A stretch of DNA of 64,000 nt, taken from assembly GCA_965649765.1 (NCBI GenBank), contig OZ287757.1, positions 23,188,001 through 23,252,000 of the forward strand. Direction: 5' to 3'. Source of the stretch: Bispira polyomma. Taxonomy: Eukaryota. The translations under genes and the position numbers were made by a program. Below are positions 4,024 to 28,104 of the stretch, one piece after another. Every line of letters begins with the position of its first letter. Position 1 is the first letter of the stretch. The notes below the pieces were generated by a model that saw nothing but the letters and a program-made list of their open reading frames with translations, was not told the origin of the DNA and ran no database searches.

Positions 4024-6755
4024 ATGGAAGCTGTATATTGTGCACTTTTCTGGATAGTAACATTGGTTACTAAAGGTGTATCTGGAGGTTTTAAGTCATC
4101 GTGTCATATGTGCATAGAATGCCTGCCTGGAACCAGTAGAGAAGATAACTGTAAGTGACTTTGTAACAAGAACGAGTATATGGCAAATCAAGACATCTAA
4201 GAGCTATATTAAGTACTGTTAATATTCCTATAAAAGTTAAAATTTGTATAATTTTTTAATTCCAAATGTTCACTTCAGCTGTTTATATATAAAGCCACAT
4301 TCCCATCTATTCTGCTCTCAGAATTATTAATTTTTCTGAAATGTAAAACCTTTGATTTTTAGCATTAACTTTGCCATTTAAAACACCAATTGTTTACATG
4401 ATCAAGCATCAGTTGACTTTTTCAGTAATTAAAACAATATCATCTGCATATAATACAATAAGAACAAGACAAGCACCTAATTGAACCCAAGTTCCATGCT
4501 TTGAGTTCAAGTAAACGATTATTTTTATAAATACTAAATAGCATTGGTGATAAATGATATCTTTGTCTAACACCTTGCAGCGTTGCTGAGTGGTTACTTC
4601 ACAGTTTCAAGAAGTCGTTTTGATTGTCCAACACAGGGATCACCTGAATACAGTCTAGTTAGACAACTGCTTTACCTGTATCAAAGTGATGATAGACAGC
4701 TGCCTTGTCAGGAAGGTGAGTGGTTACACAGACTAGTTAAAGGCTCATTTGAAAAAAAATTCGGAAGATTGAAGATCATAGTCCAATCTATAAATTCTAG
4801 GAATGGGTGATATTCAATCCATCTATTATCAGCTAAGGCATTCCTAAGCATATCAAAGTTTGATCTTGACATAGATCTATCTATGTCCTTGACAAAGTAT
4901 TTCAGTGTTTTGTATTGCAATAATCCATAATATGTTTACACCATTAAGTCTACCTTTAATATCCTTTTTGTAACCGCGGGGCAAACAGTTTCGTCAATTT
5001 TAGTCAGTATTTAATATCAAGATATATTTCTAGATTTTAAATAAACACTCCTATTCTCTTATCGCAGAATGCTCGCCTTGTACAGCCGATGTGACCACAC
5101 ATTGCCCAGACATTTTTCCTATAGAGCAGACTCCATGGATCACCATGTTCCACTCCATCTTCAGCCAAACAACCTCAATGTACATAGACATTCCTGGTAA
5201 TGTAAAGACAACCTCCAGCCAAACAACCTCCATGAACACAAACATACCTGGTAATGGGGAGAGTTCATGGCTGCCAGTCAGGGGCAAGAGAGACCTGTGT
5301 TGTTCAGACACGTGGGTGTAACTTCAATATTCAATAAATCCACCTATTATATTTTAAATAAAGTCACTACAAGAGAAATATATGTTATGTGTCATATAAG
5401 GCAACAATGAAAAGGCTATGGACAGCATAAATTGCTTTTCTCAGGAATAGATATAAGAGATTAGTCACTTAGTACAACTTTACCAGTAGCTCTTCTTATA
5501 TTTATAAGGAAAGTCTCAGCATAAGTCAGCAGCTGCTAAGCTTCTGTTGTATTTGTTATTTAGCTGACTATCCTATATAAAAATCTTCCAACTTAGAGTC
5601 AGAACGTATGATCAACTCTTCTAATCTGGTGAGGATCTTGCCATCAATAAGCTGTACCATAGACTCACTCGTGGTCAAGGTCAGTACAATGTCCATTGTT
5701 AAATATATTGTACCTAGTTTATTGCTACCACAAAAGCTGCTGAAGAACTCTTGAGTTTAACATATTGTTACATCAGCTGTACACTCTATACTTATAGTGT
5801 CACAGTAATACTTCCCTTCACAGACAATGTGACCCTGAGAGGAAAGACTTGGTACCCTGTGTGGTTCAGAGACATAGATGAGACTCTATCGGTGAACAGA
5901 CAGCTGTATGAGGAGGCCAGTTGTGCAGGGTGAGTTTGAATATGAATTGATTTAGGTTTTCATAACTTTCTGATGGCCAGATCCAGTATTCTCGGGAGAT
6001 TTCAATCTAAATCAGACTTAAACTCAAATCTGAAGTATAAATATATTCTGAGTGAATGTAAGTAAAAACTGACTGCAAATTTGAAACCTGTACCAAAAGC
6101 ACTATTAAAATGAATAGTGGCAAATATAGGTTATTTTATGTACAAGAATTTTCAGATATCCTTTGTTTTAGTTTAAGCGTGAGGTTCTTCAGAGGACACA
6201 GGCCCTGCTGTATTGGTGGAATAAACCAGTACTAAATGCACTGGAAACCACTGACCTCGGGCAAAGTACCTAGCAAATTGTCCCGCACAACAGAAGCAGT
6301 AAGAGTCAAATCCGTTGTCTTCAGATGTGAGAGGTTACTGATATTGAAGCAAAAATCCGAAATTAATACATTCACCCTTAATATACATATGTTTACAATT
6401 CATGAGGCAGTGAAGTCGATTCGGTTCATAGTTCAAGTTTGGAACATAGTGAAAAATATCGAATCTGAAATTAACTTTCTATAGAATACTTTCAGACTTG
6501 GTCCATATCTATTGAACTATATTATTGGCAGGGGGAGCAGGTAACGTTCATGTTATAATACATATAATTATCTTCTATTTCAGTATCTGTCTTCATTGTC
6601 ACACTGAACAAACAGTACACTTTGTGTTAATGACCACAAACCGACCATCGCCTAAATGGGGACATCTCTTCACACTCTTCAATAGTTTCATCCTGCAGAA
6701 CATCAAGTTTGTGCCTGTCTACAAGGATGGCTACTGTAAATGTTTCTCACCATAG
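4024..6755 (+). CDS. Secreted Spaetzle/cystine-knot-like precursor, copy A; exons 4024-4150, 4605-4715, 5068-5311, 5798-5929, 6584-6755 (261 aa)
   Basis: Hand-spliced with GT-AG introns in compatible phases (1,1,2,2), 786 nt open; hydrophobic N-terminus MEAVYCALFWIVTLVTKGVSG; RGKR then CC..C-x3-C-x2-C..CKC; exons 1,2,4,5 identical in length to copy C. An alternative in-frame exon-2 acceptor at 4581 is possible. Confidence 0.85.
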
Positions 6756-9456
6756 ACACTGCCTGGATTACCTTGCTCTACAGACTATGTACAGATAGTG
6801 CACTGACATGGCATCTTATTTAACTAATTTTTAGATAACTTTATTATACACAGAGATAATGCAGGGGTGTATTATGTGTAGAGTATTTGCTTCTAGAAGG
6901 TCTAATATTCTGTAAACAGGCTCCAAGGTGCATAGTTCAAACACATTGTCAAGTCTGTTATCATTGGAGCACCAAACTACCTAGACAAAGCAAATCAGTT
7001 TGAGGCTTACTTCTGAAAGATGACAGAATTGCAGTTGTCCAGTGATTTGAACATATATTTGTGAGAGGCCAATGATTATAAACACTGTTAACCAGAACAC
7101 AACCAGAGACCCTAGCTTTTGTGTAAGGTTTTTGACAAGAATTCTATTTTCTACTACAGGTGTTTATAGATATTATAATGACCTTAATCAACCATCTTAA
7201 ACTGATACTTAAATGCTTAAATTCATAAAGAAGATTTCCATATCAACCATCTTAAACTGATACTTAAATGCTTAAATTCATATATAAGATTTGCATATTA
7301 ATGTAAAAATATAGGCTGAACATGTTACTTTCTATGGAAAATAATAGACGCTACTTCTAATAAAAGAATTGTTTTAAACTATGATGGAAGCCATCCATTA
7401 TTTACCAAAAAAGTACAAATGTGTCACAGGATAAGTTTTGTTAATGTTATTTGATTTAAATTACTTTGTACAATATATATATATGCATTATCCTTTTTGA
7501 GTAAAACCTGGTGTACGCTTGCCACAGGTTCTCGTGAGCAAACATGGAGGATAATTTTACAGAAACCACAAAAAAAATCTAATATTAAATATTAAATATC
7601 CATGATAGGCATTCATTTAAGGTTGTCAAAAATACAATGAGATGTAGTTTTGACAAGCCGATTCTTGATTTTAGGGTATCATATCTTATTTTTTATATTG
7701 TCATGTCAGATTTACTATAGTAAACAACTCTGTCCTTGAGATGCATACCATTATAAAAATAAAAGCATCGGCGATGGACAGAAACTCAGTCGAACAGTAA
7801 ACGAGAGTCTTATTCACTAGTTGGTCTTGTGAAACATGCCATACATTGAATGCAACACAATCACTACTCAACGAGTTTATGTTTTTGCCCTATGTTTGTT
7901 TCAAGATTACACAAAAAAAAAAAAAAAAAAACAACTACTGAATTGATTTACATAAAAATTTTACAATTAAAATGTGTTTTATTCATTATTAACAAAATAT
8001 TCTTGCTTACTTTCAACACACGAAGAATTTTTTCACATTGGATTCAAATAGATATTCATAACCTCATACATGTTAATTCTTATTCTTTTTTTTTTAACTC
8101 TTATCAGGGGCAGCATTTGCATTCTCATAAGTTTTAAATCATCTCACTAGAAAGATGAGGAAAACTAGACCAGGTTTTCTGCTGGTATTTCTGGGATTTT
8201 TAAAGCTAAACTCTGTCTAGAGTGAAGTATGTGTTTCCATGTAGTATACGAATGACAACTTCTAGCTGAAGTGTGTTCTATCACTTTCTTTAGTTTGATA
8301 TAAAACGTTTTGATGTACCCAAAGACAACCATCGCCAGGCAAGGTAAGCACCAACAAAAAATAGTCTAAAATATTTTATTATTAACAAAAACTGACAAAA
8401 AAAAACACCTATACATGGTGAAAAATCAGCTATCGGGGGTTAAATTATTCTAAAGCTATTGTTCATCTCCTACATATAAACATAGATGCTAATGATGCTG
8501 ATAAGATTGTAACTTTAGTCAGTCTGCTACATAGGGACATAGCTTAATGATGCTGATGGGATTGTAATTTTAGTCAGTCTATTAAATTAGAATATAAACT
8601 AATGATGCTGATAGGATTGTAATTTTAGTCTACAAATAATTAAAAGTTCTCTATCTTGTCAAGACATAATGATATATATATATATTCAACGTATTTTTGT
8701 ACTGCCAATAAATTCAATCTTTGAAGCTGATAACCACAACAAAATGTTTTAAACACATCTGCAAGAGTGATGCTAATTTACATACACGTTTTTTTTTAAA
8801 ACGACAAATACATATCTATGTCTTTTCACGGTAAGAAATATTCCCTAAAGTACCATTTTAAATGCCAACTTCGAATGTTTATCATCTTGCATAAGATGAT
8901 TGAGAAAACCAGTCAGAGATATTTCACGGCATCACTAAGTTGACAAAAAAAGTCCCAATTTTGGCAAAATGTTAGACATCAAAAGGAACAACAACAAAAA
9001 GAAACATAAAAACCTGTATGGAATATTATAATATTCATTCTCGTATACATGAAACATAATACAAAAAAAAAAAAAAAATAAATAAATAAAAACACAATTT
9101 ACAATTTAAACAGAAAAGTAGAAAGAAATAGTATATATTAACTGACACCGATTACAATTTAAACAGATGGAAACATCTATGACTAAACATTATTATTATT
9201 CCGTATAGACACAGAAGATCATTTTATTTGTCCCATACAAAGTAGGCATAGTGCTTTCTTGAGAAATAAAAATAGTAGATACATTAACTGAATTTAATCA
9301 ACAAACCCTAATTGATCCTTTCTAAGGTTATATTTACTACCATTTAATGCTAAGAAATAACAAGATGAGACACATATATTATCACTTTTTAGAACACTCT
9401 GTAAAAAATTCAAAAACACCTATCTAACTGAACATCATCAGGAAAGTCTTCACATA

Positions 9457-9891
9457 TCAGCGGTAACAACCCAGAGTGAGGTAACTTCCATATTTTTCTG
9501 ACACATTGTTTGCATCCTGGACTAGATAGCTTAGTTGTACAGACTCTCTGGATATATACATTTTGTGTTTGTGGACACCGAACGAATAACAGGATACAGA
9601 CATTGTGTGGACACCGAGCGGATCTCGAGACAGATTGCTGGACAGAGTGGACAAACTTGTTTATTGTTATTTATGTGGACAGGACTGTGGTCAGGTCAGA
9701 TCGGTTTCATTATTGTATTATTGTATGAACTATTAAGAGTATCTCAGTTGACTGTAATTCTGTAATTGTATAATTGTGTAATTTTATTTTATTTGTTAAA
9801 TAAATTTGTTAAGTGAAACTTTTTGTCTTTTCCTGTTACAACTTAAAAGCAACCGGTAATTGCTACCGCGCTTGCTCCCGTGACCGTAACA
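9457..9891 (+). mobile_element. Possible degenerate solo LTR
   Basis: Absent from the paralogous region near 3100-3180; internal gtggaca repeats, AATAAA, ends CCGTAACA; no clear 5' TG or TSD. Confidence 0.3.
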
Positions 9892-10937
9892 AAGTGTTAT
9901 CAATAGTAAACAATTTCGTGACGGTCCCTGTATCATTAGATATTACATCACACACCCTTATTTAGAGAATATGTCATGACATCATATACTGCATAAGTAC
10001 AAATTTTCACACCTGTCAATAATTTTACCTATTTTAGTTAATGAGTTGGTATAGTGAAAATTCATTCCCAGTAAAAATTAGATCTTGCATTGATATTTTC
10101 AACTGAAGAAACAGTCATTTAGTTAAAATTTATTAGAGTAATCTTTTCAAAATATTTTGAAAAGTGACAAATTTATTTTTGTTTAACTTTTCTACATATA
10201 CAGTATTCCTCAGTTATTTTATCCACAGGGGAAAAAGATCTAATTTACATAATAATGCATTTCTGTAATTTCTCACGGTTAAAGCAGACTTGCGACACAA
10301 TATATTTGAAGTAGGTTTAATACACAGGTCATAAGTAGACCATGTTTTCTTTGAATGGTGTGCGTGCGTGTGCACAGTGAAGACATGATTTTGGGAAATA
10401 TAATATAAATAGAAAAGTTCTTCCATATTCGAGTGGTAGATCATGGAATAAAATATACTAAGAGAAAATAAAGGATGTATAGATTCCTAAGACATGGCTA
10501 ACACATAATTTTGAAGAAATAGTTGGTTTGTAAAACAATTTGAAATTTCCTCTCTTTGAAAATGAAGTAAAGTTTGCTGTTTTTGGGTACAAACTAAGTA
10601 CAGGTGTACTATTGGGAGGGTCAGTTCTGTGTTGGTCATTTAGTGAATCAAAATGTTGTTTTGTGATGTAAAAACCCATATAGGGTAAAAAGTTTCATGT
10701 GTGTGACAGGTAAACTTAGGCTATAAAAACATTTTTTTTTCAATCTTGAATATGCTTTTGTCAGACCTGTTGAACAATGAATGAACGTTGCCTATTCTAT
10801 TTGGTATACTCAGTCATCTGTGGGTTTAAAACAGAGACATTATTTCAATCTTGAAAAGGGTTTTGTAACCTGTGGGATACTGAATGTTTTCTGTCCTCGA
10901 CGATGTTTTGATTGACTGACTCTAGACAGGACGACGA

Positions 10938-11170
10938 ACAGATATGTTACCAGAAGCAAAAGTCAACAAATCTCACATGGCAATTCACTATATACTAGAC
11001 AACGGGAAATATACGTCAATAGTTTAAAATAATCATATAAGTTATAATGTTGTGTACAACGCTAATGTATTAATCAATATACAACCACAGACTAGATAAA
11101 AAGATAACAGTTTGTCTGTTAAAAGTGCCGGGTCAGATTTGTTGACTTTTGCTTATGGTCACCACTCTGT
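10938..11170. mobile_element. MITE with ~50-bp imperfect terminal inverted repeats
   Basis: accagaagcaaaagtcaacaaatctcacatggca (left) vs tgccgggtcagatttgttgacttttgcttatggt (right). Confidence 0.75.
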
Positions 11171-11516
11171 CGGTATCAGCTGCACATCAGTAAAACACGG
11201 TTGTTTCAGCAGCAGGGAACTAGGTCTAGGTGATAAGTAGACAGGAATTAACAAAGAATAATTCAATTCTTAAATTCGTTTTCTTAATGAGCTTGGATTT
11301 AAATAAAAATTCTCAGTGATTGGGTTTAAATTTTTTATCAATCTCTTCAGTGAATAAAGTTGCTCTTTCAGGATCAGGAAATTTATGCCAATACCCAATA
11401 AATTGTAAACGTTTACTACAGCTAAAATTTCCATTGGTACACTAAACTGAGAGTTTACCGTGTATAGACAGTTGACATAATCTACAAGAAATTTAGTGCT
11501 TGCATTCAGTACTTTA

Positions 11517-12380
11517 ATTGAAGCTGTACATTGTGCACTTTTTTGACAGTAATATTGGTTACTACAGATTTATATGGAGGTTTCAAGTTATTGTGTCATC
11601 TTTGCATAGAATGCCTGCCTGGAACCAGTAGTTTTATGAAGTCTTTTCGATTGTCCCACACTGATCATAGTCCAAGCTATGGATTATAGAAATGGGGTAT
11701 ATTCAATCCATCTGTTTACAGGTGAGGCATTCATATATATCAAAGTTTGATCTGAGACAATGTGACCACTCACTGCTCTGTCATATTTCCTATAGTGCAG
11801 GCCCCATGGACTACCATGTTACACTCCATCTTCATCCAAGCAGTCTCTATGCACACAGACATACCTGGTAATGGAGAGTCAACCTCCAGCCAAACAACCT
11901 CCATGAACACAGGCATGCCTCGTAATAGAGAGAGTTCAACATGGCTGGCAGTCAGGGGCAAGAAAGGCCTGTGTAACTTTTAATAGTTTCTACTTTACCT
12001 GTACCAATTTTTGTTTACGTGGGATTTCATTGTAAATTAAAGTTAAAAGACATTTAAAATCTTGAGGGTTCATTGGAAACTTAATTAGAAACAATAAAGG
12101 GGGTTTGAATGGACATTTCTCCCTATTTATACTAAATTTACTTTATGTAATCACGTATTTGTTGTATGCAAAATCTTGTACCGACAAAGCTCCGTTATTA
12201 ATTCAATAACTATCAATTTTATTTTATATAAAGTCAATACTAGAGATATATATATGTTGTCATGTGTCATATAAGTCAACAATGACAAGTCTATGGACAG
12301 TATAAATTGCTTTTCTCCAGAATAGATAAACAATAGATGTCTCAACTCTAAATATACTACATTTCCAGTAGCTCTCCTTA
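11517..12380 (+). pseudogene. Collapsed pseudogene (copy B) of the Spaetzle-like gene
   Basis: Exon 1 with ATG>ATT and TGG>TGA, fused by deletions to pieces of exon 2, intron 2, exon 3 (ORF 11762-11983) and intron 3; RGKR changed to RGKK; truncated by an L2 fragment. Confidence 0.85.
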
Positions 12381-12389
12381 TATTGATTG

Positions 12390-13240
12390 AGTCCTAGATT
12401 GGATTAGATCCTATCTGAATGACAGAACCCCAAAACAAACTGGATGGTCACTTTTCATCCTCATTCAGTCTTCCTTTTTGGATACCCTAGGAGTTGGTCC
12501 TCGGGCCTCTACTTTTTACAATCTAAACACATCCCCTTGGTACAGTTATCAATAATAACAATATTAAACACCACATGTATGCTGACGACACTCAGTACAG
12601 TACACTGTCTTTCCTCAGTACAGGGTTGGATGAATTACTCCAAATTGAATTTAAATCCTGACAAAACTGAATTTATTCTCATTGGTAGTAAGAAACACAG
12701 TGAGTAATTGAGATCATTATTCCCCATTATGCTATTAGGCAATGATACACATCCCTCTGATAAAGTCAAGAATCTTGTCACCCTTGACTTTGCTTTCTCA
12801 TCTGATACACACATCAGCAACATTTGTCGCTCTTGTTACTATGACATTTGTGATATCAAAAAAAAAATCAGAAATCACTTGGATACTGCCATCATTGTGG
12901 CTAACTCTCTTGTTAGCAGCCATCTAGACTACTACAATTTCATTCTGCGTAGAAAAGTGTCACATAAATAAGTCACAGTCTATTCAGAACTATCTGTGTC
13001 GAGTCATTGTTCGACTGGGGATTAGCACTGATGTCTCTCCATAACTCAAAAGACTACATTGGCTTACAATTCATTATAGTATTTTGTTTCAAATCTATGT
13101 AGTACTTATCTCTCAACAGCCATTCTACCCTGCCGCTCGCCTTTCTCTTAGTAACCTTAAAAGTGGCAAGAGACTTTCTGTTTCTTCTGGTATACCTACA
13201 CAGAGGGCTTTCTCTGTCACTGCCCCTGTGTTAGGAAATA
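12390..13240 (+). mobile_element. Degenerate L2/CR1-group LINE, RT C-terminal half
   Basis: Frameshifted motifs HMYADDTQ, WMNYSKLNLNPDKTEFILIG, LVSSHLDYYN, LKRLHWL, RAFSVTAP. Confidence 0.85.
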
Positions 13241-13250
13241 GTCTAGAGAG

Positions 13251-13502
13251 TTTGAATTTGAATTGGGATATTTAACGTCCACTCTAGTACCTCTTTAGGT
13301 TATATTGGGATGGGTAGTTGGAAACGCTGGAGGAAACATTGCATACAGTTGATCAAGGTTCTGCACAGAAACCAACGGCCCATAGTAAGGAACTACCACC
13401 TTTCCCACATAGGCATCGATGGGATTCAAACACACGCCACCCAGAGGTGAAAGACCAGTGATTGTAAAGCGCAATGCTAACCACTAGGCCACCACGGCCC
13501 CG
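13251..13502 (-). mobile_element. Full-length tRNA-derived MESC-like SINE with 14-bp TSD
   Basis: Minus strand begins GGGGCCGTGGTGGCCTAGTGG (A box), GTTTGAATCC (B box), core TGTGGGAAAGGTGGTAGTTCCTTAC, (TTCAAA)n tail; TSD aatagtctagagag at 13237-13250 and 13503-13516. Confidence 0.9.
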
Positions 13503-14244
13503 AATAGTCTAGAGAGACAAAGGCAGTAAAACAAGTGAGAGGAAAGAGCAATATTTGAAGAAAGAAGGCAGGTAACGAGATATACAGAAAGAGTGGCAGA
13601 ATGTGGGGTGGAAGGGAGAACGGGTGGTTGGAGAGAGTGAGGGATTAAACAAGTAAATGAGTTGGGACTGTGAGAAAGAACACTGAAGTGGTGGCTGGAG
13701 AGAGTGGGAAAGAAAACAAGGAGAGTGGCTCGAGATATTGAAGAAACATGCACTTCTGCTCATTTCTCTCAAACTCAGAACGTAAAATCATCACAAACTT
13801 TAATTGTATCAGTAGTACATCTTGAATACATCTAAGATAATAGGTGACCAAAGAGGGCTGTAGCATCTGCGCTTAACAAACCTTCTTTGCTTTTGAACCA
13901 AAATATGCGGAACCGTCAATAAATAAAGTTTCACTGTTTTACGAGAGTTTTATTATTGCAAAAAATGTATTTAGCTAGACATTTAACTATTTGTTCTCCA
14001 AAGGAGTGATTATCATTTGTCCATAAACGAGCAGAATTCACAGTTTAGTGCAATACTGAGAATGCTTCATGTGATGATAGGTTTAAACTAGAAGTCAGCA
14101 GGTTTTTCTGGGGGAGGGGGCTGCCCGATTGAGAGAAATGAGCAGAAGTGCATTACTAAGTAGCATGTTTGCCAACATTGTGCCAAAAAAAATATTTATA
14201 TAGTAAAGTCTGGTTTAAATTGGTCAACGTGTACATGCCACCTG

Positions 14245-15700
14245 TTACATGGCCAATTTTGTGATTAATTCCACATAAGCTTTGGATAAAAACCAACGTG
14301 ATACACCGTCAGCCTGTTTGTTGTCTACTCCATATATATGTGAATATGATGTATATATGTGAATTTTGGACAGCAATATGATGTATATATGTGAATTTTG
14401 GACAGCAATATGATGTATATATGTGAATATTGGACAGTAATAAGATGTATATATGTTAATATTGGACAGCAATATGATGTATATATGTGAATATTGGACA
14501 GCAATATGATATATATATGTGAATATTAGACAGTAATAAGATGTATATATGTTAATATTGGACAGCAATGTCATATTTAGCTGTCATGGCCCATAGAGTA
14601 CGGACAATGCCATGAGATATGCAACTTCCATTTTCTCAGAATTAGGTACATTAACAACTGCCAAGTTGTCATACCAGACCTGGATTTTCTTGTGTTGAAA
14701 AAAATGAGCCCAAGTTTGTGATGCAATTACAAGAATTTTTAGATGGACGATTGTTAGTCCCTGCACTTTGTGAACTGGATATGGTGCAGTATTTTCGTTT
14801 TCCTCCTATATGGCACCTATGCCAGTGAGCGACACGTCGACATAAAGATGTTGTTGAGGTTGAATGTGATTATAGACAATTTTGCCATTATAATAGACCA
14901 AAAAAAAATAATAAACCATTCCATGTTTTGAAAGAAATTTTTATGCAAGAGGGTTTTCACATGCTTTGGCATTTGCTTCAACATATGGAGAATACGATTG
15001 ACAAATAGCCTCGCACGATAGATGCATTTATGCATGTATATGAGTCTTCCTATCAAGCTTTGTAATTGTGTGCGTGAATCTGCTAAATATTAATTATACC
15101 CATACATATACACAGACACTTGATCTGGATTAATGGGGAGTTAACGTTGTAAAAGCCTTTTGACATCTATTATCCGATTATATCAGCGATGTAATTCCAA
15201 ACGTGGAATCCATGTGACGTCATGACATTTGTTGTTCTTTGAAATAACACACTGCCAACTTAAGACCAAACGTAACGCTAACATCAATATATGTATGGCC
15301 CCCATGTCAGACGCCGATGACGTTATAGTCTTTTAAGTCTAGGCACAGATTGTGAAAGGCTCGACTGACTTCAGCCTTATATAAATGTACATCAGGTCCA
15401 GCCTCTGCAATTCTATTAACTATGTCATTTAATGTGGGAATGATATCATGTAGGAGTATAACTTTGGCCATCATATATGCCATTTTGTATATTAGTATTG
15501 ACTGAATTACCATGAAGCCAATTTAAGTCAACTATTACTCTCCTAGATGTGTTTGGTATAAGTCTAGATAACATGGGTGATAAGTATGTATAACAGTGTC
15601 ATCATCAGGACCAAATATTGCCCTGTGTTTAAGTTCCTTTTCTATATATTTATATCAGCCCAAATTTGGGAATGGTTATAAAATAAGATGAAAATACAAG
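14245..15700 (-). mobile_element. Decayed Ngaro/DIRS RT-RNase H fragment
   Basis: Broken ORFs with PTLNDIV..LYKAEVSRAFHNL, IGRLIYMHKCIYRARLFVNRIL, YDNLAVV, HIYGVDNKQADGVSRW, homologous to pol 33078-35504. Confidence 0.85.
14345..14572. repeat. 32-bp minisatellite, ~7 copies
   Basis: Unit atattggacagcaatatgatgtatatatgtga. Confidence 0.9.
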
Positions 15701-15861
15701 ATGTAGATTGAAATGGCCAGTTTATTCAACTGACAAAGAGTGTATATATTAAACCAAGCATACAAGGTATTTACATTGGATTACATAACACAAGTGACGT
15801 ATATATAGATTATTTATTAACATAAATGTGGTGAGGGACAATAAGGGAAAGAAATTTATAG

Positions 15862-18631
15862 AAACAAAAAAAACAAAAAAAACATAAAGAAATGGTTATA
15901 CAGAAAAGGGTGACATATATGCAGATTTGAGAATGGAGGCTGTGGTTGAAGGGGTTATCTTTTCCACTAGTATTATTTCACAAAAGGGAAGAACAATTCT
16001 TCGTCACTGCCACGAAGTAGCATGGCTAGTCAGCCGCAGAAATGCTATACTTTACTGTATTTCTATTTTCAAACTACTTGCTTATCACAGTCACTCCTCA
16101 CCCCAATGCTGCATTCAGATAACACTCCCTCTACTCTCCTCGGCATTTCCCGCCTTTCTTATATTCTCACTGATAAGTCAGAAGACAAATCCTTCTTACT
16201 CTCCCCAGCACTTTGGCGCCCTTTCTAGGATAAGCTCATTATTAAGTCAGAAATCAAACTAACAACATCAAAAATCTTAAGCTTTCAACAGCCATATTGG
16301 AAATTTTTATACATTATCACTAAAAATCCAATTGCCTTCTTAAGTGTTTATTATTTTACAAAATTACAACAAGTTTCACACAGAGGATAATATTGTGCAT
16401 CTTTTAAGTTAATTTGTGTGGATATTAGTTAAAAATGGGTAGAGGAAAAAAAACTCGTGTACTAGATGTACTAAATGTGAAATCTTTCACACACGACCAG
16501 TAGGAAATCGTTGCAAACGAACCACAGACACAAGAGATGATGATCTTCTCCAGCCTAGCCTTAATAGTGATGATCAAAGCAGTATTTCTGAAGCAAGTGG
16601 CCAAGTTAGCAGTGAAAAATTCTATCATGAGGCATACTCCACACAGCAGAATATGATGGAAACCCTGTTATCTACAGTCTCCAAGCTACAAGAAGACATC
16701 TCAGATCTCAAATTTGGAAAGATGGAGACCAACCGTGTGTCGCCTCATAACGCACCCCGAGATCCTCACACTTCACTAGGACTTCATGACAATCAGAGAG
16801 ATCACACTTCCAGCTCGTTTGCGACACATCCTCTCGCTACAGATTCTCCCTCATGTCACCTCACTAGTTCACAGAGCCGGTATGACCACGAAGCCACTCA
16901 ACGAGCTTTCAAAGATACCATTCTCCCGACTCCCGAAGTGCTGAAGCAGTCATCCCTCATACAGAACGAGGTCTCCCAACGACTAGCGAGATATGAAGCC
17001 TGGGCCACAGATGAGAGCATTCAAGGTAAGCTCACTACCAAGCAAAAATCTGGCCGTTATAATACCTCCGAGTTATGTGTATCTGACCACATGAAGCGGT
17101 GGCCAAATGAGGCCTGCTTATCTGGTATTAACAAAAAGCGTGTCTCTTTTGATGAATTGTCAGTCTCACAGTTCGCTGCTGGCCAGATCCAAAATATTCT
17201 TGAGGTTAAGAATCCTGATATTTCACGAGCCATGCTCTCTCAACTAGCAGACACCCTCAAAGATGCCTCCAACATCTCCTGGGAGATTGCTCGTGGAGCA
17301 TATGCCAGTAATATGCATGATATTGAAGAGGGTCGTTTGAGTTGGATAAATGACACAAAATGAAATATGAATCGGCTTTCTTATTCTCAAGCCCTCATAT
17401 CCAGTACTACCACACCTTTGACCAGTTCGTTTTCTGCTTCATCTTCAAGCAAAAATGAAATGCCTTGCAGGCGTTACCAAAATAATGACTGTCAACACCA
17501 GAAAGATCATGAGGGCAATAACATTACATTTCGACATATCTGTGCCAACTGTTTCCGTCTCAACAAGAAAATGAACCCACATCCCGAGTCGAAATGCTTC
17601 AAGTTACACGGCCGCCCAAATGCGCCCACGAACGCCCCTCAATAGGGACGCGGACTGCCAGCAGACACCACAGCTACTCACCTTAAGTCCACTTCTGATG
17701 TCGTTATTAACCATTGTGTGCTGACAGGAAATTGTGATTCAACCAGTGGTACTAATAAGCAAATTTGTAAGAAAACCAGTTTCAAGAATGATTTCATAAA
17801 TAATTTTAGTTGTCAACTCAATGAGTCAATTACTCAATTGAGTTATAGAGATGCCAGTAAGACATCTCAAGCATTACCTGGCAGTGTTTCCCTTAATGAC
17901 TTATGTTGGCAAGAATTGCCTGTTAAATTGAACGTTATGAACTCTGTTCAGTGTGATAATAATGGTCAAAAACCATCAGCTGTCTTTCATACAGTAGACG
18001 TTTATATTAGCACCAGTATTTTTAAGTCTGATTGTCTAACTTATTGCTATATTGTTTGTCATGATGAGTCATGTATTTCAGGTGTATACAAATGGACTTA
18101 TGGCCTAAATATGTGGTACTTACAACAAACCCCCTATACTCTGGATCACATATGGCCATTATCCTATGTGAACACCACTTGTGCCACAACACTACATCAC
18201 ACTCAACCAAATCAGTCAAAAAACTGTGCAAAACATAATGTGGCACATACACACACAAAAATTGGACAAACTTTCTATTATACAGATAGCATTGACAAGA
18301 TTTGCAAATCAAATTTTCAACACCAGAGCAATTCAGATTGTAACCATCAAGCTCACTTACCCCTTGAGCATCAAATTAATCAAGGTAATGCACTAGTGCA
18401 TAATGACAAGGGTATGAGTCAAAAACCTATATTACTGCATAATGAAACTTCTAGGATTCAAAAACCTATATTAGTGCACCACTGACTCAATGAAACAAAA
18501 CAAAAAAAAAACAAAACATAAAGAAATGGTTATACAGAAAAGGGTGACATATATGCAGATTTGAGAGTGGAGACTGTGGTGGAAGGGGCTATCTTTTCCA
18601 CTAGTATTATTTCACAAAAGGGAAGAACAAT
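15862..18631. repeat. ~135-bp direct repeats (15862-15997 and ~18494-18631) flanking the plus-strand Ngaro copy 2 fragment
   Basis: aaacataaagaaatggttatacagaaaagggtgacatatatgcagatttgag..gggaagaacaat occurs twice with few mismatches. Confidence 0.85.
16436..18485 (+). mobile_element. Ngaro copy 2: disrupted gag (16436-17645) plus in-frame N-terminal part of pol, 3'-truncated
   Basis: QGK..KSGRYN..WPNE..KRVSFDELS..EEGRLSW and Cys/His knuckles (CRRYQNNDC, HICANC..HPESKC) align with gag 31356-32720; premature stop at 17361-17363. Confidence 0.9.
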
Positions 18632-19849
18632 ATAATTATATATATGTGTGTCAGTGAAGAGAAACCCTTGAACTGGCCTACACACAGGTTTTTTAACACA
18701 ATGTTTAATCTCTACCCACAGCTAGGAAATATGAGTGATGGACTAAGCCTTACATACAAAGCTAGACTTCCTTTGGTGATATAAATGTATATTTGATATA
18801 ATCATTATTTATATCACTCCAAATTTAGGAATAGTTATAAAATATCCATGTATTTTGTAACACTTGCTGTTGAGAATTCATGACACTAACTATTAAAGCT
18901 ATGAATGAAAGCATGTTGCTTTTCCTGCTTTGTTACATTTATTTCATTATTGTCTATATGTTGCTGTAAAAGCCTAGAGGTATAAGTACCTCTGCTGGTA
19001 TGTATAAGTACCATGGTTGAATACCCGTTAACATTATTAGGGCTAAGGTTCGAATTGTCCAAGTATGTGTGTACTGAATGAACATGTTGACCCCATTCCT
19101 TATTACTACACATAAGAGTGCAAAATGTATTATAAGGTAACTACCTTTTGTGGCTGAGTGCATCCAGAATATCATGAGTAAAATTTACTATATGTTGAGT
19201 TGATACCACAGTAACCAGCTGTCAGTAACCTAAATAAATAGACACGAGAAAGTTAACTAAATGCTAGATATTGCTTATAACTTTTAATGAATTAAGAAAT
19301 TTAATACTTTTTAATTTTACTAAACATTCCTTTTTTATGTTTGTACAAAATATAGTTTATATGCTATCTGGCAATGTAAATTACGCAGACAGAGTAAATA
19401 GACAACGGAAAAGTCACTGAATGCTAACAATTAAATGCAATTTTAATTAGGATCTTATCATATTTTTTTATATTATGTTCGATTTCATATAAAATCTCAA
19501 GTTTTCAATTTTAATCCAATCTCAAGTTTGGCTAGTTTTGCTGACCTATCAGAAGTTGACGATAGCCTGTCTTAAAATTGGTCAAATCTAAAGTTGGGCT
19601 TGCACTTATATATATATATAATCTTTGTGATGCAGATGGCACTATAATAAATCAATTTCCCCTCTCTCTTTCTTCCTTTATAGTTAGGGGTCCAGTGGAA
19701 CATATGTTAGGATAATAACTTCTTTCTAATACATTGTAAAATTTTAGTACAGCTGAAATTTCTATTTGTAGAGTGGAGAGTTAACTCTGTGAGAGTTAAC
19801 TGTGTATGAATTAACAGCAACAACTACAGTGCTTGCATTCAATACCACA

Positions 19850-22800
19850 ATGGAAGCTGAACATTGTGCACTTGTTTGGTTAGTAATATTAGTTACTACA
19901 GATGTATCTGGATGTTTCAAGCTATCATGTCATCTATGCATCAAATGCCTACCTGGAACAAGCACAGAGGATAAATGTAAGTGACTTTGTAACAGGAATG
20001 AGTATCTGGTAAATCAAGACATCTAAGAGCTATATTAAGTACTGTTAATGTTCCTGCAAAAGTTACAATTTATATTAAATTTAAATTTCAAATGACCAAT
20101 AGTGAAAATTGATTATTGAGTATAATGAAATACTGTATTGCTTTTTTTTTCTTTATGTTAAAATGTCTACTTATGATCTACCCCTCTGTATTGATAACTG
20201 TTGGCACTTATGTATATAGGCTTGATTATATCCTGTATATCTTGTCATCAGTTTTGCGTGTTCAAGTTTACTTTAAATATCTTGTACATGTCTCATTTCT
20301 TTTGTCTAATCAAGTTTCGCTTCAGTTCACAGTCTCTGTTAGAGTTAATAACTGTGAGCTCTTGCACGAATGTCTTAAAGGGTAATTCCAGCATGTCTCT
20401 TTTTAGCTGAGCTAACACCAGGATCTTATAGTACCATATATATGACTAGTGTCCCTTGAGTTTTTAAGTTAATAAACAGCTTAGATACTGTGTAAATAAG
20501 CCTTCAGTTTCCCCCATAAAATTCAAATTCTCCACTTTCTCCTTCGGCTCTTTTTATCAGTCATGTGGTACAAACTCATCAGAGATGTCTCAGGATGTAA
20601 ATAAACAACTAGGGATTTGTACTCTTTACTGTATGTGTATGCATTCTTGTTTTAGTTTGGCAGGGTGTGTGCAGGTTGATAATTAAAAATAAAATATATA
20701 GATAATAAAAAATGGTTCACTGTGTTGTATTTGGTTGTAAAAATAGAAGTAATAACCAAAAACCTGGTCAAAAGGTACATTTATGCGCCTTTACAAGGGA
20801 TGAAGCTGTGAAAGTGATTTGGATTAAATGTTTAAAGAAAGAAAAGTATCAATGGAAAGTAGGGCACAGATTGTGCTCTGATCACTTTGACAGAAGTCAG
20901 TTTGAAGTAGATCCTATAAGAATGGCTGAGTTGGGATATCCAAATGCTAGAACCAAGCTTAAACCTGAAGCATTGCCATCATTCACTTATAAAACTGTCA
21001 GCAAAAAAACTCTCAGTACTTTAATAAAATAATGGAATTAAAAAACTTATAGTTTCTCAGTGAATACCTCTCACAGCAGCGAACACCCCAACAAACATGT
21101 TTAGGCATATTTATTGTTATATTAATTGCCATGGGGTAAAATTGATACAGTATTGTCTTATTTTTCTCTTATATCTTTTGAATTGATTGATTGGGGTTTA
21201 ACGATGCTTTCAGCACATTGTATAGGTAATATCAGTTCATACTAGTTTGTTGGTAAGTATTCTACACTGTAAACCACTTGACATCAGCAAGTAACTGCCA
21301 ACATTCCCACATAAAGTCACGGCCAAGATACAAACCCATGACCTTGGAGGTGGGAGGTGAGTGTGTTAACCACAATGCCAACGAGCCCTCTTGTAAAATA
21401 AGGTTCATAAATATGATTAAATATGATTAAACATGATTAATAAATTCAGAAAAAAAGAACCGTGCCAAATACTGTTTGTATACCATCATATACTACAGCA
21501 TAAAATTAGAATAAAATAAATACAGCATTTCTACTATTAACAGCTTTATTGAAACTTTGGGTTGTTTTTGTTTTTTGGAGATCTTTAGTGAATGAATAGC
21601 ATTTATTGTTGAATAATTTGTCAACACACAAAGTGAATTTTCTTACATGAAAAGTTTTTTTTCCCAGTGTCATGGGCCACAATTGTTAAACTAACACCAA
21701 TTATTGCAACAGTTTGTATTACAACTGTTTGTGTCAAGCTTACAACATATTATTGTTTAAAGTAAGAGCTGTGAATATAGTTCTGGAGTAAATTTTAGCA
21801 TAAGTATGCACACATAGATCTATCTAATGAGGGGGAATAGGATATTTAACTCTGGTGTGTGTTTGCAAAGACTTTCTATGTGCTGTGTAGTGAGAATTAC
21901 AATCTAGTTAAACATCTCTGACGTCACACAGAGACCTACATGTGGAGGCCTGCACTCGGCAAGTTCCGACACTTGTCTTCGTGAGGCCCAAAGTAATTAA
22001 TTTACAGTGCTGATTATATGGGATTGGGATCTTTATTAGAGTGTATGTGTGGAGTTATACTTATGTTTATTATTGTTCTGCCATATACTATTAAAATATA
22101 GAACATTTTTTACGTGCTAAAAATACCCTTTAAGACTAAGGTTTCCTGGTCTATTAAACTAAGAAAATAGATTGGCTAAGCTATTCATTGATTTGCAGTA
22201 ACAAAGATCTCGCTAGTCTTATTGTTCAGAATATTATCCTATAATTATACTTCTATCACCAATAAATCAGGAAAGCAATTTAAATTTTAAAAAGTTAATT
22301 TCAAATTATCAACAGTGAAAATTATTTCTAGAGACTTTCTTAAAAATAGTAGAATAAATAAATTTTCTTCCAGCTAAAATTTTGACTTCCACTGTATATA
22401 TATATATATAACTAAAACTGTGTACTGACCCATGAGAGAGTAATATCATCAGTAAGTGACTATTACAGTACAATGCCACATTTCTGTGTGAGTGTTGTGA
22501 GTTTTAGGCAGCCAAAGCAGTCATTGATACAGTTTATTGGGTATCAATCATTAACCATGAATCAACAATTTTCTATATCGATTTTCCGGGACATGAATTA
22601 TCATCATACATGAAAATTTTTGTTAGGATAATGGTTCATGCTGGGCAGCTGAAAAGATCATACATGGCAAAATGTTACTAAGCATAGCTTGCTGTAATAC
22701 AATCTAGTTTCTACGTGTAAATCGCCTAATTGAACCCCAAGTTCCTTGCTTTATAGTTCATATGGAAGATTATTTTCATAAATACTAAATAGCATTGGTG

Positions 22801-25800
22801 ATAAATGATGTATTTACTTAACACCTTGCAGCGTTGCACACCAAATAGTTACCAAGTGGTTACTTTACAGTTTCAGGTAATCCCTATAACTGTCCCACAC
22901 AGGGGTCACCCGAGTACAGTCTGGTGAGACAACTGCTTTACTTTTATCAAAGTAATAACACACAGCTGCCTTGTCAGGAAGGTGAGTCATACACACCAGT
23001 TTGGTGTATAGGTTGGGGTTATTGTGGGGTTCTCACTATACCGGTATGGAGAAGCTGTAAGAGGCATTAGAAAAATCGTCGTGCTGGAAACCTTAACTTT
23101 AGGTACCTTTTTTAACCTTCTACAGCCGGCCATGAGGCGGAAGTTTTGGACAGTGTTTAAACTTCCACCTGGCAGAAAAAAGAAGGAAAAATGCTTCCGC
23201 TAATTTTTGACAATTTCGGAGTATTAGAATTATAGATATATTAAGTAAACAATTTTGATTCATGGGGATGAACCATTATATGCTTAAAATGTATGGTATT
23301 ATGTATCAAATTGTGAAAGTACACATATCCTCCAAATGTCAAGATGAACAGGTAAATGCCTTGGTAACAATGCCTGAAGGCGAGTTATACCTATCTCCAG
23401 TTATGTTTTAGTGCTGCTCCTGGTGAAGGTGGTGGTGGTTGGGGGGTGGGATATAATTATAGAGGGAGATGTATTACATAATTCAATACATAATGTTACA
23501 ATTTGCCATCAGCCCTGTACATTTCATCATCTATAGTATCTTTCAGGAGGAAACAGAAGTTATGAACATTTACCATGCATCCCCTTTTTATACAAACATA
23601 TATGTACCACTTGGTACATGCGAGAATACAATACAATACATCACATGTTGTACTTATTATCGCAGGATATACCTAACAATACTTGAGGATGGTGCCATTG
23701 TATTCCGTTTGGAAGGCTTGAGTGTTACAACTGATAATGTATCAAAAACAAATAATGTATCAACTAACCCTGTATGCATGCTCCATCTGGAATGTTTGCT
23801 CCTATAGTTTCATATACACCTGTTTTCATGCCCACAATGACCCAATATGCTAGCTAAATGTATTATTAGCTTGATATTGATATCTATGGCAGTTTGTGCA
23901 ATAAATGGCTATGGTATGAGGTCAATGTAAAAAACAACATATGACACCATTGTAGTCATAAGAAATTAATTAACAAATTAATTCCACACAAAGTGTTAGA
24001 TAGAACCGTAGAAAAGTGTGCTGCATTTGTTTAATTCTACAGGAATAAGGACCGTTATAGACTCGATGATGATGGTAAAACATTTCTACGTGATGGAAAA
24101 AGGTCATGGTACCTGAGTCCATTGGAAAAATAGTAAATAAACATTGATAATCTCAAACCTGTATACAACTTAAATAAAAAATATTAATCAAATATAGCAA
24201 TCCAAAGCATAAAGTTCCCCACAAATACCATGTAATTGACAGTACCATAAAGATGCTAAATTTAAGATTGTCTTCGTATAAAGTAGAGTTTAAATTACAA
24301 GAACAAGAACAACAACCAAGTACAAGAAAAATAATGACAAATTTGTTTACTGTTATAAAATCAATTAACCAAAACAATCATCTAATAATATTAGCAGGGC
24401 CTTCACAAACATAACAAATCATAGCAAATAGAATACATTTAGAGAAGAAAAGAAAGTGTACACATTAATATGTACATGTATGAATATCCAGCCCCTTCCC
24501 ACTCAGTGCTCACACACCTTCAAACCATCCTAATTAGCCACCCCTCCCCCCCCCCCAAACACACACCACTTATTCCACCAATCCAGCTACCAACGCAAAA
24601 CTCAAATCAATGCTATATATTAAATAATAGTGTAGATGTGATCAGTTGTTTTCCTTGCAAAAAAAAAAAAAAAACCTTACAAATGCCTTGAAACAAAAAT
24701 CTGGGTTCTTGCCATGGCAAAAGGTCGGAACAGTGAATTTAGCCCATGAACATTGTCTATCAAGTTTTTAGCAATACCAAAAAATACGCAAATATTGGTG
24801 AACATAGGGTCGGTACATTTCCTTTAAAAGGCCCAGAAATGAAAATTCAGATTGTTGTCATGGCAGCAGGGCAGATTTGAGATTCAGGCAAAAACTAATC
24901 CCAAGCAAGGTATAACCAAGACCAGCTCATATATTAAATTATAATTTGACATTCATTAAATATGTAAGCAATATTTTCCTTGATTCACTACCGATACATT
25001 ATTTGTTAATGTGTTGATACATTATTGGCGAGGTGATAATACATTATCAGTCAAGTGTTGTAACGTTATTGGGTTGGTGAATTGATACATTATTGGTCAA
25101 ATATGATACGTTATTGGTTGTTGATACGTTATTGGTCAACTTGTGATACGTTATTGGCGAGGTTGATACATTATTGGTTTTTGATACATTATCAGTTTTA
25201 ACACGAGCTATTAGTAGTTGAATATTTCTTCAGACGGAATCCATTGTAGTACAGACTTAGTCAAAGTGTTCAATAGTGTTTAGTACTAAGCATTCTTCAC
25301 AAAGAGGACTTTCAACTTGTTTCCACAGATATAGATTATAGTCACCTTGTGATAATCTGTGCAGAAAATTTATAGATTATAGTCACAATTTTACTGGAAG
25401 CTCTGTAATGGAGGTTTATTTAAATTCAATTTGGGTGGATTAAAGACTCTCCATGCTATTGATTCTAGGAATGGATCATATTCAATCCATTTATTTGTAG
25501 ATGAGACATTCATAAATATTTAAGTTTGATATTGATGTAGATCCATCTCTGTCTTTGACAAAGTCTTTCCATTTTTTGGTATTGCAATAATCTATAATAT
25601 GTTTTCACCAGTAAGTCTACCTTTAATATCTCCTTCCTTTCTGTAACCACAGGTTAAACAGTTTCGTCAATTTCGATCAGTACTAAATATTAAGATATAC
25701 CTCCAGATTTTCAGTTGACACAAATCGTTAGCCTTTTAGTAACAACAGTGACAAAACATCTTTTTTTGATCTAACGATGTATTTTGTTTTTAAATGATCA

Positions 25801-28104
25801 AATATACAATAGTATACACTTGTATTTCCTTATCACAGAATGCTGGTCTTGTACAGACAATGTTATTACACACTGCCCTGACATCTTTCCTATAGAGCAG
25901 ACCCCATGGACCACCATGTTCCAGTCCATCTTCAGCCAAACAACTTCGATGTACACAGACATACCTGGCAGTGGAGAGACAACCTCCGGTAAAACAACCT
26001 CCACAAGCACATACATACCTGGCAATGGAGAGACAACCTCCAGCAAAACAACCTCCATGAAAGCAAACATACCTGCTAATGTAGACACAACCTCCAGCCA
26101 AACAACCTCCATGAAAACAACCATACCTGTTTATGGGGAGACAACCTCTAGTCAAACAACCTCCATGAAAAACACCATACCTGTTAATGGGGAGAAAACC
26201 TCCAGGCAAACAACCTCGATGAACACAGACATACTTGGTAATGGAGAGACAACCTTCAGTCAAACAATCTCGATGAACACAGACATACTTGGTAATGGAG
26301 AGACAACCTCCAGCCAAACAGCCTCGATGAACACAAACATACCTGGTAATGGAGAGACAACCTCCAGGCAAACAACCTCCATGATCAAAGAGATACTTGG
26401 TAATAGGGAGCCAACCTCCAGCCAAACCCAAACAACCTCTGTGACAACAAACATACCTGATAATGGAGAGACAACCTTCAGTCAAACAAACTCCATGATA
26501 ACAACCATACCTGGTACTGTAATGACAACCTTCAGTCAAACAACCTCTACGAAAACAGACATACCTGGTAATACAGACGTGCCTCGTAATAGGGAGAGTT
26601 CATGGCGGCCAGTCAGGGGCAAGAGAGCCGTCTGTTGTTCAGACACGTGGGTGTAACTTCAATATTGAATAACTCTACTTATTATATTTCATAGAAAGTC
26701 ACCACTGGAGAAATATTTGTTATATAAGTCAACATTGAAAAGTCTATGGACAGCATAAATTGCTTTTCTCCAGATTAGGTAAAAGAGATTAGTCACTTAA
26801 CTTTCCCAGTAGCTCTTCGTATATTTATAAGTAACATCTTATTGGATAAGCTCCTGTTGTATTTGTTATTCAGCTGACTACCCTATATAAAAATCTTCCC
26901 AGTTATAGTCAGACTTGTTTTATGATCAATTCTTCTAATCTGGTGTGTATCTGGCCATCAATAAGCTGTACCATAGATTTATAGATTTAACCGTGGTCAA
27001 GGTCAGCACATTGTCCAATGTGAAATATATTGTACCTAGTTCAGTGCTACCACAAAATCTGCTGAAGAGCTGTTGAGATTAACATATTGTTACATCAGCT
27101 GTGCAATCTATATTTTTCAGGTTCACAGTAAAACTTCCCTTCACAGACAAGGTAACCCTGAGGGGAAAGGCTTGGTACCCTGTGTGGTTCAGAGACATAC
27201 ATAAGACTCTACTGGTTAACAGACAGCTGTATGAGGAGGCCAGCTGTGCAGGGTAAGTTTTGAATATGAATTGATTTGGGTTGTACATCATTTTCTGATG
27301 GCCAAATCCAGTATTCTAGCAAGATTTTAATCTAAGTCAGAGTTAAGCTCAAATCTGAAGTATAAAAATAGTTATATGTGACTGCATATTTAAAATCTGC
27401 ACCAAAAGCACTATTAAAATGAATGACGACAGCTATAGGTTATTTTATGTACACAAATTTCCACATAGCCTTGGTTTGAACTTAGGCATGAGGTTCTTAA
27501 GAGGACACAGGCCCTGCTTTATAAATGGAGTAAACCAGTAGTAAATGTACTAGAAACCACTGACCTCGGTAAAGTGTTTGGCACATTGTCTCACACAAAG
27601 AAAGCAGTAAGAGTCAAATCCCTAGTCTTCAGATGTGAGAGGTTGAAAAAAATACATTTACCCATAATAAATGTATGTTTACAATTCATGAGGCAGTGAA
27701 CTTAATTCGCTTCATGGTTCAAGTTTGGAACATAGTAGAAAATACGGAATATGGATTGCTCCTTTGGGAGAGATAAAATAATTTTTTTTATATGATATGG
27801 ACCAAGTCTGAAAGTGCTCTATAACACTTTTAGAGTTTGTACATATCTAGTGAACTATGATTTTATTAGAGGAAGTAGTTTTATAGTTTTAGTCTTTTAT
27901 GTTAGAATACAAATAAGTATCTTTTATTTCAGTATCTGTCCCCACTGTCATACTGAACAGACAGTACACTTTGTGCTAATGACCGCAAACCGACCCCATC
28001 CTAAATGGGGACATCTCTTCACACTCTTCAATAGTTTCATCCTGCAGAACCTCAAGTTTGTGGCTGTCTACAAAAATGGCTACTGTAAGTGTTTCTCACC
28101 ATAG
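19850..28104 (+). CDS. Secreted Spaetzle/cystine-knot-like precursor with expanded mucin-like repeats, copy C; exons 19850-19976, 22871-22981, 25839-26646, 27121-27252, 27933-28104 (449 aa)
   Basis: Same exon phases as copy A; 1350 nt open; RGKR and all seven C-terminal Cys conserved; exon 3 is 564 nt longer through in-frame repeats. Confidence 0.85.
20712..21032 (+). CDS. THAP zinc-finger ORF (transposon-derived)
   Basis: MVHCVVFGC..W..RLCSDHF..F..LKPEALPS matches the C2CH THAP signature with an AVPT-like box. Confidence 0.85.
   Translation: MVHCVVFGCKNRSNNQKPGQKVHLCAFTRDEAVKVIWIKCLKKEKYQWKVGHRLCSDHFDRSQFEVDPIRMAELGYPNARTKLKPEALPSFTYKTVSKKTLSTLIK
21180..21390 (-). mobile_element. Divergent tRNA-derived SINE (second MESC-like family) inside the Kolobok
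   Basis: Minus strand has a tRNA-like head, a TGTGGGAATGTTGGCAGTTACTTGC core and a (CAAT)n tail. Confidence 0.55.
23723..25203. mobile_element. Non-autonomous TIR element with TGT..ACA ends and 4-bp TSD (Ginger-like) in intron 2 of copy C
   Basis: TIR tgtta(c/a)aactgataatgtatcaaaaac; flanks tgag / cgag; about ten subterminal gatac(a/g)ttattgg repeats at 24988-25200. Confidence 0.65.
25961..26560 (+). repeat. Coding 54-bp tandem repeat, 11 units (consensus IPGNGETTSSQTTSMNTD)
   Basis: Read from ORF 25784-26656; 11x54+6 = 600 nt. Confidence 0.95.

Follow-up and report, generated by a model that had tools for sequence, protein, structure and literature searches.

Gene copies and precursor layout

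Between 3.2 and 28.5 kb of a 64-kb window of the Bispira polyomma genome (64,000 nucleotides of contig OZ287757.1, assembly GCA_965649765.1, positions 23,188,001 to 23,252,000 of the forward strand), three same-strand copies of one gene were identified, and this gene very probably encodes a secreted precursor protein. The copies were delimited by self-comparison of the window, their shared blocks being ~77 to 89% identical with introns and flanks included. A tblastn search with the spliced product as the query detected no fourth copy in the 64 kb. Such a gene family genuinely exists; its sole safely intact member is copy 1, copy 3 is doubtful, and copy 2 is dead. The sequence context is AT-rich and of the animal type, with a GC content of 31 to 42% per 2-kb block, GT-AG introns, and many retroelement remains; no Rfam match was obtained in the window. 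Copy 1 is composed as follows (window coordinates):

4024..4150, + strand: exon 1, with the ATG, a signal-peptide-like stretch, and C-x2-C-x2-C
4581..4715, + strand: exon 2, coding for pro-region, with another in-frame acceptor at 4605
5068..5311, + strand: exon 3, with the end of the Cys-rich pro-region, a Ser/Thr stalk, RGKR (5280-5291), and the start of the mature domain, where two Cys are adjacent
5319..5362, + strand: in-frame TAA (5319-5321) close to the start of intron 3, with AATAAA motifs behind it at 5333 and 5357
5798..5929, + strand: exon 4, N-terminal half of the mature domain, closing with the first Cys of C-x-G-x-C
6584..6755, + strand: exon 5, C-terminal half of the mature domain: four Cys, C-K-C, and the TAG

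The first-pass annotation of this DNA had proposed that scattered short open reading frames (ORFs) splice into a five-exon gene releasing a 107-residue, seven-Cys domain behind an RGKR site, and for copy 1 these numbers were reproduced. All exon ends conform to the GT-AG rule, and the joined exons give 269 codons with zero internal stops; RGKR occupies residues 159 to 162, and the terminal C-K-C of the ensuing domain is located three residues before its end. The pro-region contains eight Cys residues (positions 27, 30, 33, 58, 85, 89, 92, and 100), and the Ser/Thr stalk spans 39 residues, 36% of them Ser or Thr. The N-terminal hydrophobic stretch reaches an 11-residue Kyte-Doolittle value of up to 2.3 in copy 1 and 2.84 in copy 3. 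Its n-region has zero basic residues; the hydropathy fits a signal peptide without a membrane anchor, and past the N-terminus no membrane-like segment, i.e., no 19-residue hydropathy window above 1.3, was found. An R-x-K/R-R site occurs once per protein, directly before the Cys domain, and is common to copies 1 and 3; such a site arose anywhere in 1,354 of 50,000 shuffled sequences.

The remaining two copies are represented by these segments:

9892..10321, + strand: copy 2 upstream block, sharing 82% identity with 3183-3593, which lies upstream of copy 1
11337..12387, + strand: copy 2 pseudogene, with ATT for ATG at 11517-11519, a frameshift, and internal deletions
19850..19976, + strand: copy 3 exon 1
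22832..22981, + strand: copy 3 exon 2, with a net 15-nt insertion carrying an in-frame TAG (22846-22848)
25839..26646, + strand: copy 3 exon 3, with an expanded 54-bp (18-residue) Ser/Thr repeat (25933-26572) and RGKR (26615-26626)
27121..27252, + strand: copy 3 exon 4
27933..28104, + strand: copy 3 exon 5

In the mature domain, copy 3 shares 92 of 107 residues with copy 1 and keeps all seven Cys (7/7). Its stalk is 227 residues long and consists of 11.7 copies of the 54-bp repeat. The earlier count of two intact paralogues did not hold, as copy 3 exon 2 carries the TAG at 22846-22848 if acceptor 22832, orthologous to that of copy 1, is used. This acceptor is preceded by the same 39-nt AG-free tract, yet the exon runs into the insertion with the TAG. 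Exon 2 of copy 3 is open only from a downstream acceptor, e.g., 22871 or 22877; the former has its copy 1 counterpart in 4605, and three AG dinucleotides lie within 40 nt upstream of 22871. Copy 3 has either been rescued via another acceptor or been inactivated recently. In exon 5, copies 1 and 3 are identical over 51 nt (6651-6701 in copy 1), including synonymous sites, along a hydrophobic stretch, which may reflect gene conversion or extra constraint.

The dead copy announced by the first-pass annotation corresponds to copy 2, which has ATT in place of ATG, a 1-nt deletion in exon 1, and RGKK instead of RGKR, and which lacks exons 4 and 5; deletions have also removed the bulk of exon 2 and the beginning of exon 3. 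Past its truncation point, at 12400-13200 on the + strand, lies a decayed fragment of a non-long-terminal-repeat (non-LTR) retrotransposon with reverse transcriptase (RT) sequence, assigned by eye. Birth-and-death evolution, as suggested previously, is consistent with three copies of which one or two are decaying, as far as a single window, which cannot demonstrate it, can tell.

Coding constraint and the exon 3-4 junction

Comparison of copies 1 and 3 over 224 codons gave proportions of non-synonymous and synonymous differences (pN and pS) of 0.089 and 0.297, respectively, and a ratio of the corresponding rates (dN/dS) of 0.25. The ratio was 0.23 both for the non-repeat pro-region (117 codons) and for exons 4 and 5 (90 codons; Fisher P = 0.0005), and the two shifted frames of these exons yielded 0.72 and 1.23. 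Among individual exons, values of 0.32 for exon 1 (P = 0.026), 0.18 for exon 2 (36 codons; P = 0.0014), and 0.18 for exon 5 (P = 0.0011) were obtained; for exon 4 by itself (0.31; P = 0.22) and for the final 17 codons of exon 3 (0.87), significance was not reached. The gene is coding and under purifying selection in the pro-region and in the mature exons.

The in-frame TAA that the first-pass annotation had placed after exon 3 is present in both copies, at 5319-5321 in copy 1 and at 26654-26656 in copy 3. Intron 3 of copy 3 contains no AATAAA or ATTAAA. A short isoform ending after exon 3 is possible for copy 1 only.

The junction between exons 3 and 4 is not unique: 19 donor-acceptor pairs in copy 1 and 21 in copy 3 reach the exon 4 frame. 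For the donor at 5312/26647 (copy 1/copy 3), the orthologous partners are acceptor 5798/27121 and a GAG acceptor at 5840/27163. We prefer the first of these, already chosen in the first-pass annotation; with it the frame stays open in either copy, and its pyrimidine count is 10 of 15 in copy 1 and likewise in copy 3. From the same donor, acceptor 5824/27147 alone was rejected, the frame being shifted with 6 stops. This acceptor can be reached through a micro-exon:

5663..5679, + strand: copy 1, candidate 17-nt micro-exon of the rival model paired with acceptor 5824; acceptor with 7/15 pyrimidines
26985..27001, + strand: copy 3 counterpart; an 8-nt insertion creates an out-of-frame AG 8 nt upstream

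Together with acceptor 5824/27147, the 17-nt micro-exon leaves the frame open in both copies and gives a mature domain of 104 residues. This model was ranked second because of its weak acceptor, because the differing codons alter residues, and because of the out-of-frame AG upstream in copy 3. It represents the one candidate evaluated among 39 (copy 1) and 30 (copy 3) possible bridging micro-exons. The nine disputed junction codons show 0 synonymous and 2 non-synonymous differences and hence no selection signal. The set of Cys residues is identical under both models, and the first loop alone differs (44 versus 41 residues). The end of intron 3 (5680-5780) is identical to copy 3 at 91 of 101 positions without gaps, an exon-like value that exceeds that of intron 4 (82%), perhaps reflecting splicing control around the ambiguous junction.

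The mature domain and its relation to known ligands

In both copies the Cys residues of the mature domain occupy positions 3, 4, 49, 53, 56, 102, and 104, corresponding to the spacing C-C-x44-C-x-G-x-C-x2-C-x45-C-x-C-x3. The published signature of growth-factor cystine knots combines C-x-G-x-C with C-x-C, and in these knots the two motifs form an eight-residue ring (PMC12203953, PMC3224965). Both copies contain C-x-G-x-C followed by C-x-C in this order, as a six-Cys knot demands. When the domain was shuffled 200,000 times, 11 of the resulting sequences showed the full layout, 230 the two motifs in order, and 1,434 a loose layout with any ring; note that these patterns were chosen after inspection of the sequence, so that the counts flatter the case for a knot. 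In the simplest pairing order, knot Cys I would be Cys3 or Cys4, II Cys49, III Cys53, IV Cys56, V Cys102, and VI Cys104. A growth-factor cystine knot of some kind is a likely fold for this domain.

Several observations weigh against a knot. The AlphaFold model of exon 4 (2 sequences, mean predicted local distance difference test [pLDDT] value of 60) places a helix over the would-be second strand (exon 4 residues 26 to 42, pLDDT ~60 to 70), and the model of exon 5 (1 sequence, mean pLDDT 49.6) consists of one helix with zero strands. Both are low-confidence models of fragments without their disulfide partners and thus constitute weak evidence; a β-hairpin is predicted in the first loop by the exon 4 model. 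The helical hydrophobic moment exceeds the strand moment across mature residues 29 to 55. Moreover, the III-IV gap between Cys53 and Cys56 amounts to two residues, and we know of no III-IV loop as short as that. A small conotoxin knot has nine residues in this loop (PMC12203953). Finally, no exon tried gave a cystine-knot match in Pfam, the PDB, the ESM Atlas, or the sequence sets searched.

All homology queries and models were single exons, and queries of 43 to 56 residues can miss distant relatives; the negative results therefore mean only that the searched sets hold no close relative. With Pfam, the eight exon translations produced 5 weak matches below the cut-off, none of them to a knot family. 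The Spaetzle and NGF assignment for which the first-pass annotation had suggested a Pfam check found no support there, 0 of 8 translations matching Spaetzle, NGF, or another knot model at E ≤ 10 in what is a low-powered test with single exons. A word-index search of a 5.8-billion-sequence set, covering longer proteins only, yielded zero candidates for exon 5, zero for exon 3 residues 1 to 45, and 4 for the two-copy alignment of exon 4 (0 at E ≤ 10). The best ESM Atlas hits, 0.78 for exon 5 and 0.86 for exon 4, led to unrelated retrotransposon-type clusters. Exons 5, 4, and 2 had 0 matches among PDB sequences; exon 1 was searched against Pfam only and exon 2 against Pfam and the PDB only. Foldseek with the exon 4 model returned 0 matches at E ≤ 0.001 and 19 at E values of 6.7 to 9.7, none meaningful. 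A literature search by full-text words, which is blind to sequence and could overlook Spaetzle when spelled with an accent, found no paper attributable to the gene family. Two sets of hits were discarded: two chance matches of the exon 4 profile to PDB sequences, and three spurious phmmer matches of exon 5 among 1.84 billion cluster representatives, all of them long tandem-repeat proteins whose scores sum 10 to 11 weak stretches; the best of these, when aligned, matched zero Cys.

Comparison with known ligand families revealed partial similarities to several of them. Like the Spaetzle proteins (Spz1 to Spz6, DNT1/DNT2), the predicted product is a putative secreted pro-protein with 7 Cys, a presumed covalent dimer, and a cleavage site of the furin-like Spz2/Spz5 type. 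Mature Spaetzle has ~106 residues, Spz2 and Spz5 undergo furin-like processing, the Trp-loop of Spaetzle is located in the first loop, and a conserved interchain Cys is situated close to mature residue 94 (PMC9427763). The size agrees, with 107 residues after the RGKR at which cleavage would occur. The seven-Cys match on which the first-pass annotation had relied is one of number and not of position: there are zero Cys between mature residues 57 and 101, hence none near the Spaetzle dimer Cys, and the spare Cys is residue 3 or 4. Unlike Spaetzle, whose pro-region is natively unstructured, the product combines an N-terminal spare Cys with a C-x-G-x-C ring and a Cys-rich pro-region.

With neurotrophins (NGF/BDNF/NT-3 and invertebrate neurotrophins), the product shares the order of signal, pro-region, basic site, and a Cys domain of ~105 to 120 residues ending in C-x-C. 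It differs from them in its seventh Cys, the 45 residues between IV and V, the 8-Cys pro-region, and the mucin-like stalk, and the neurotrophin ring is larger than the present domain's ring, which has eight residues. The neurotrophin consensus [GSRE]-C-[KRL]-G-[LIVT]-[DE]-x3-[YW]-x-S-x-C (PMC2772990) is matched at 4 of its 9 specified positions, 4 of the first 5 agreeing around Cys49. Further resemblances are the long first loop and a Gln ahead of the second knot Cys (PMC2586362). This Gln is residue 42 of the mature domain (39 in the micro-exon model), seven residues before Cys49; in DNT1, the Gln conserved between neurotrophins and Spaetzle is residue 539 and the knot starts at 499 (PMC2586362), a match of positions made without an alignment. 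In the NGF family, the mature domain is described as having the knot Cys only (PMC4079206), compared with seven Cys here.

C-x-G-x-C plus C-x-C connects the domain to the knots with an eight-residue ring, i.e., TGF-beta/BMP, PDGF/VEGF, glycoprotein hormones, DAN, and conotoxin sigmaS-GVIIIA, from which it departs in its III-IV link of only two residues. BMP-7 likewise has 7 Cys, one of them for the dimer (PMC3224965). Cys53 and Cys56 are separated by two residues and the spare Cys is N-terminal, in disagreement with the TGF-beta/BMP pattern. TGF-beta has a helix-bearing III-IV segment of ~30 residues and its spare (dimer) Cys beside IV. The loop lengths and the position of the spare Cys fit no eight-residue-ring family known to us.

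With Trunk/PTTH the product shares a signal, an N-terminal domain, a cleavage site, and a Cys-rich mature peptide, as described for bivalves (PMC8398477). The I-II loop of 44 to 45 residues and C-x-G-x-C do not agree with this family, and single exons gave no Pfam match to it. Trunk/PTTH proteins have a I-II loop of ~23 residues and a wider ring. The spare Cys beside Cys I and the long last hairpin presumably resemble PTTH, which the literature search did not confirm. Invertebrate IL-17 types with six Cys also exist (PMC11087794). Overall, the domain most likely works like a cystine-knot ligand and is assignable to no named family. From the interpretation given in the first-pass annotation, a secreted, probably furin-processed product with a knot-like Cys layout and without a characterized relative in the sets searched survives, and the tie to Spaetzle does not; the suggested role as a Toll-receptor ligand found no support either.

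On balance, we favor a lineage-restricted family of secreted pre-pro-proteins that release a divergent growth-factor cystine knot as an extracellular ligand. Five-exon splicing of the coding exons, with the exon 3-4 junction presumably as preferred above, would give the 269-residue precursor, and its N-terminal hydrophobic stretch would, judging from hydropathy, direct it to the secretory pathway. The eight Cys of the pro-region may form four disulfides, and the Ser/Thr stalk, variable in length and probably O-glycosylated, would link the pro-region to the mature domain. A furin-type convertase would cut after the RGKR motif. According to the Cys spacing, the disulfide from Cys3 or Cys4 to Cys56 would thread the ring of Cys49-Cys102 and Cys53-Cys104 in the 107-residue knot, and the spare N-terminal Cys could join two chains. 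The dimer might then signal via a surface receptor, the weakest step of the scheme. If we had to guess, the family split off from the neurotrophin/Spaetzle branch, evolves fast, and acts as a local cytokine or growth factor.

Unlikely, but the most serious competitor, is a secreted disulfide-rich protein of another, partly helical fold, such as a defense, matrix, or mucus effector, in which the knot-like spacing is coincidental. Helices in both fragment models, the helical moments, the very short III-IV spacing, the missing knot-family match, and the hydrophobic, fully conserved stretch of exon 5 would all suit such a protein, and effector genes commonly show tandem gain and loss. On the other hand, the ordered pair of C-x-G-x-C and terminal C-x-C is rare in shuffles, and the fragment models have the shortcomings described above (1 to 2 sequences, low confidence, no disulfide partners).

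A true member of the Spaetzle family that activates a Toll-like receptor appears distinctly improbable. No Cys is found near mature position 94, the ring has eight residues, and single exons have no Pfam Spaetzle match, even though the overall layout and size, the 7 Cys, and the Gln position are kept. The Cys pattern varies among Spaetzle paralogues, Spz3 and Spz4 having two extra Cys and Spz6 lacking two (PMC2586362), and one molluscan homologue, from a Paphia clam, is cited as untested in Toll signaling (PMC7773633). About as speculative is a bolder extension of the knot reading, a new knot family that unites a first finger of the neurotrophin/Spaetzle type, an eight-residue ring, a minimal III-IV link, and an 8-Cys pro-domain of its own, and that, once released by a protease, serves Toll-like receptors as an endogenous ligand in an invertebrate lineage believed to have no Spaetzle.

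Still less probable is a degenerate representative, or else a decoy, of the families with an eight-residue ring (TGF-beta/BMP, PDGF/VEGF, glycoprotein hormone, DAN) that acts on or sequesters their ligands. The ring type, the 7 Cys shared with BMP-7, and the pro-region followed by a furin site, which is the TGF-beta layout, speak for it; loops of 44 to 45, 3, 2, 45, and 1 residues, which differ from those of TGF-beta, and the absence of a Pfam match for the exons searched speak against it. Termination of all transcripts after exon 3, giving the pro-region and a 9-residue peptide behind RGKR with exons 4 and 5 unjoined, is very improbable because purifying selection acts, in the spliced frame, on these exons, which belong to the same duplicated block, and because intron 3 of copy 3 has no comparable poly(A) signal, despite the TAA close behind the donor in either copy, the AATAAA motifs of copy 1, and the ambiguous junction.

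The discovery of cystine-knot ligands usually depends on resemblance to a small number of known families, which leaves a divergent member spread over several exons unseen. If the domain is a knot, its neurotrophin-like first loop, eight-residue ring, and III-IV link of two residues would extend the range known for this fold and inform the relation of the neurotrophin/Spaetzle branch to the eight-residue-ring families, and the gene would be a concrete candidate in the search for endogenous Toll ligands of non-arthropod invertebrates. Should the domain adopt another fold, what would remain is an orphan family of secreted proteins, of modest interest.

Other elements in the window

An apparently intact, young retroelement of the DIRS type (tyrosine recombinase), with gag-like, RT/RNase H, and recombinase ORFs, occupies 31042-38376. 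Its split direct repeats pair 31042-31251 with 36702-36911 (207/210 identical) and 36496-36701 with 38171-38376 (206/206); the last repeat is located 1.26 kb past the third, and the interval holds a tandem duplication (37294-37762). We take this split-repeat layout to be that of Ngaro/PAT. Further degenerate DIRS-type elements or parts are found at 226-1305, 16443-18485, and 49690-52664 (- strand), the second of which, assigned by eye and without a Pfam match, sits between copies 2 and 3.

The region at 39836-45144 contains an ORF with a PC4 domain (Pfam PF02229) and, at 43628-44830, a 400-residue ORF without a Pfam match whose motif presumably marks it as resembling a Maverick/Polinton packaging ATPase. 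It is framed by nested inverted repeats (38903-39499 versus 46635-47299 and 40689-41208 versus 44876-45410). A dispersed repeat resembling a short interspersed nuclear element, without an Rfam match, recurs at 2516-2641, 13248-13488, 46764-46892, and 58000-58246 with 88 to 94% identity among its copies.

On the - strand, 57197-57392 has no Pfam match and combines an ATG at 57392 with a hydrophobic leader, a coiled-coil-like stretch, and a GTAAG donor after 57197; it is probably the first exon of another secreted protein. A decayed non-LTR retrotransposon fragment with RT sequence lies at 61400-63550 on the same strand.

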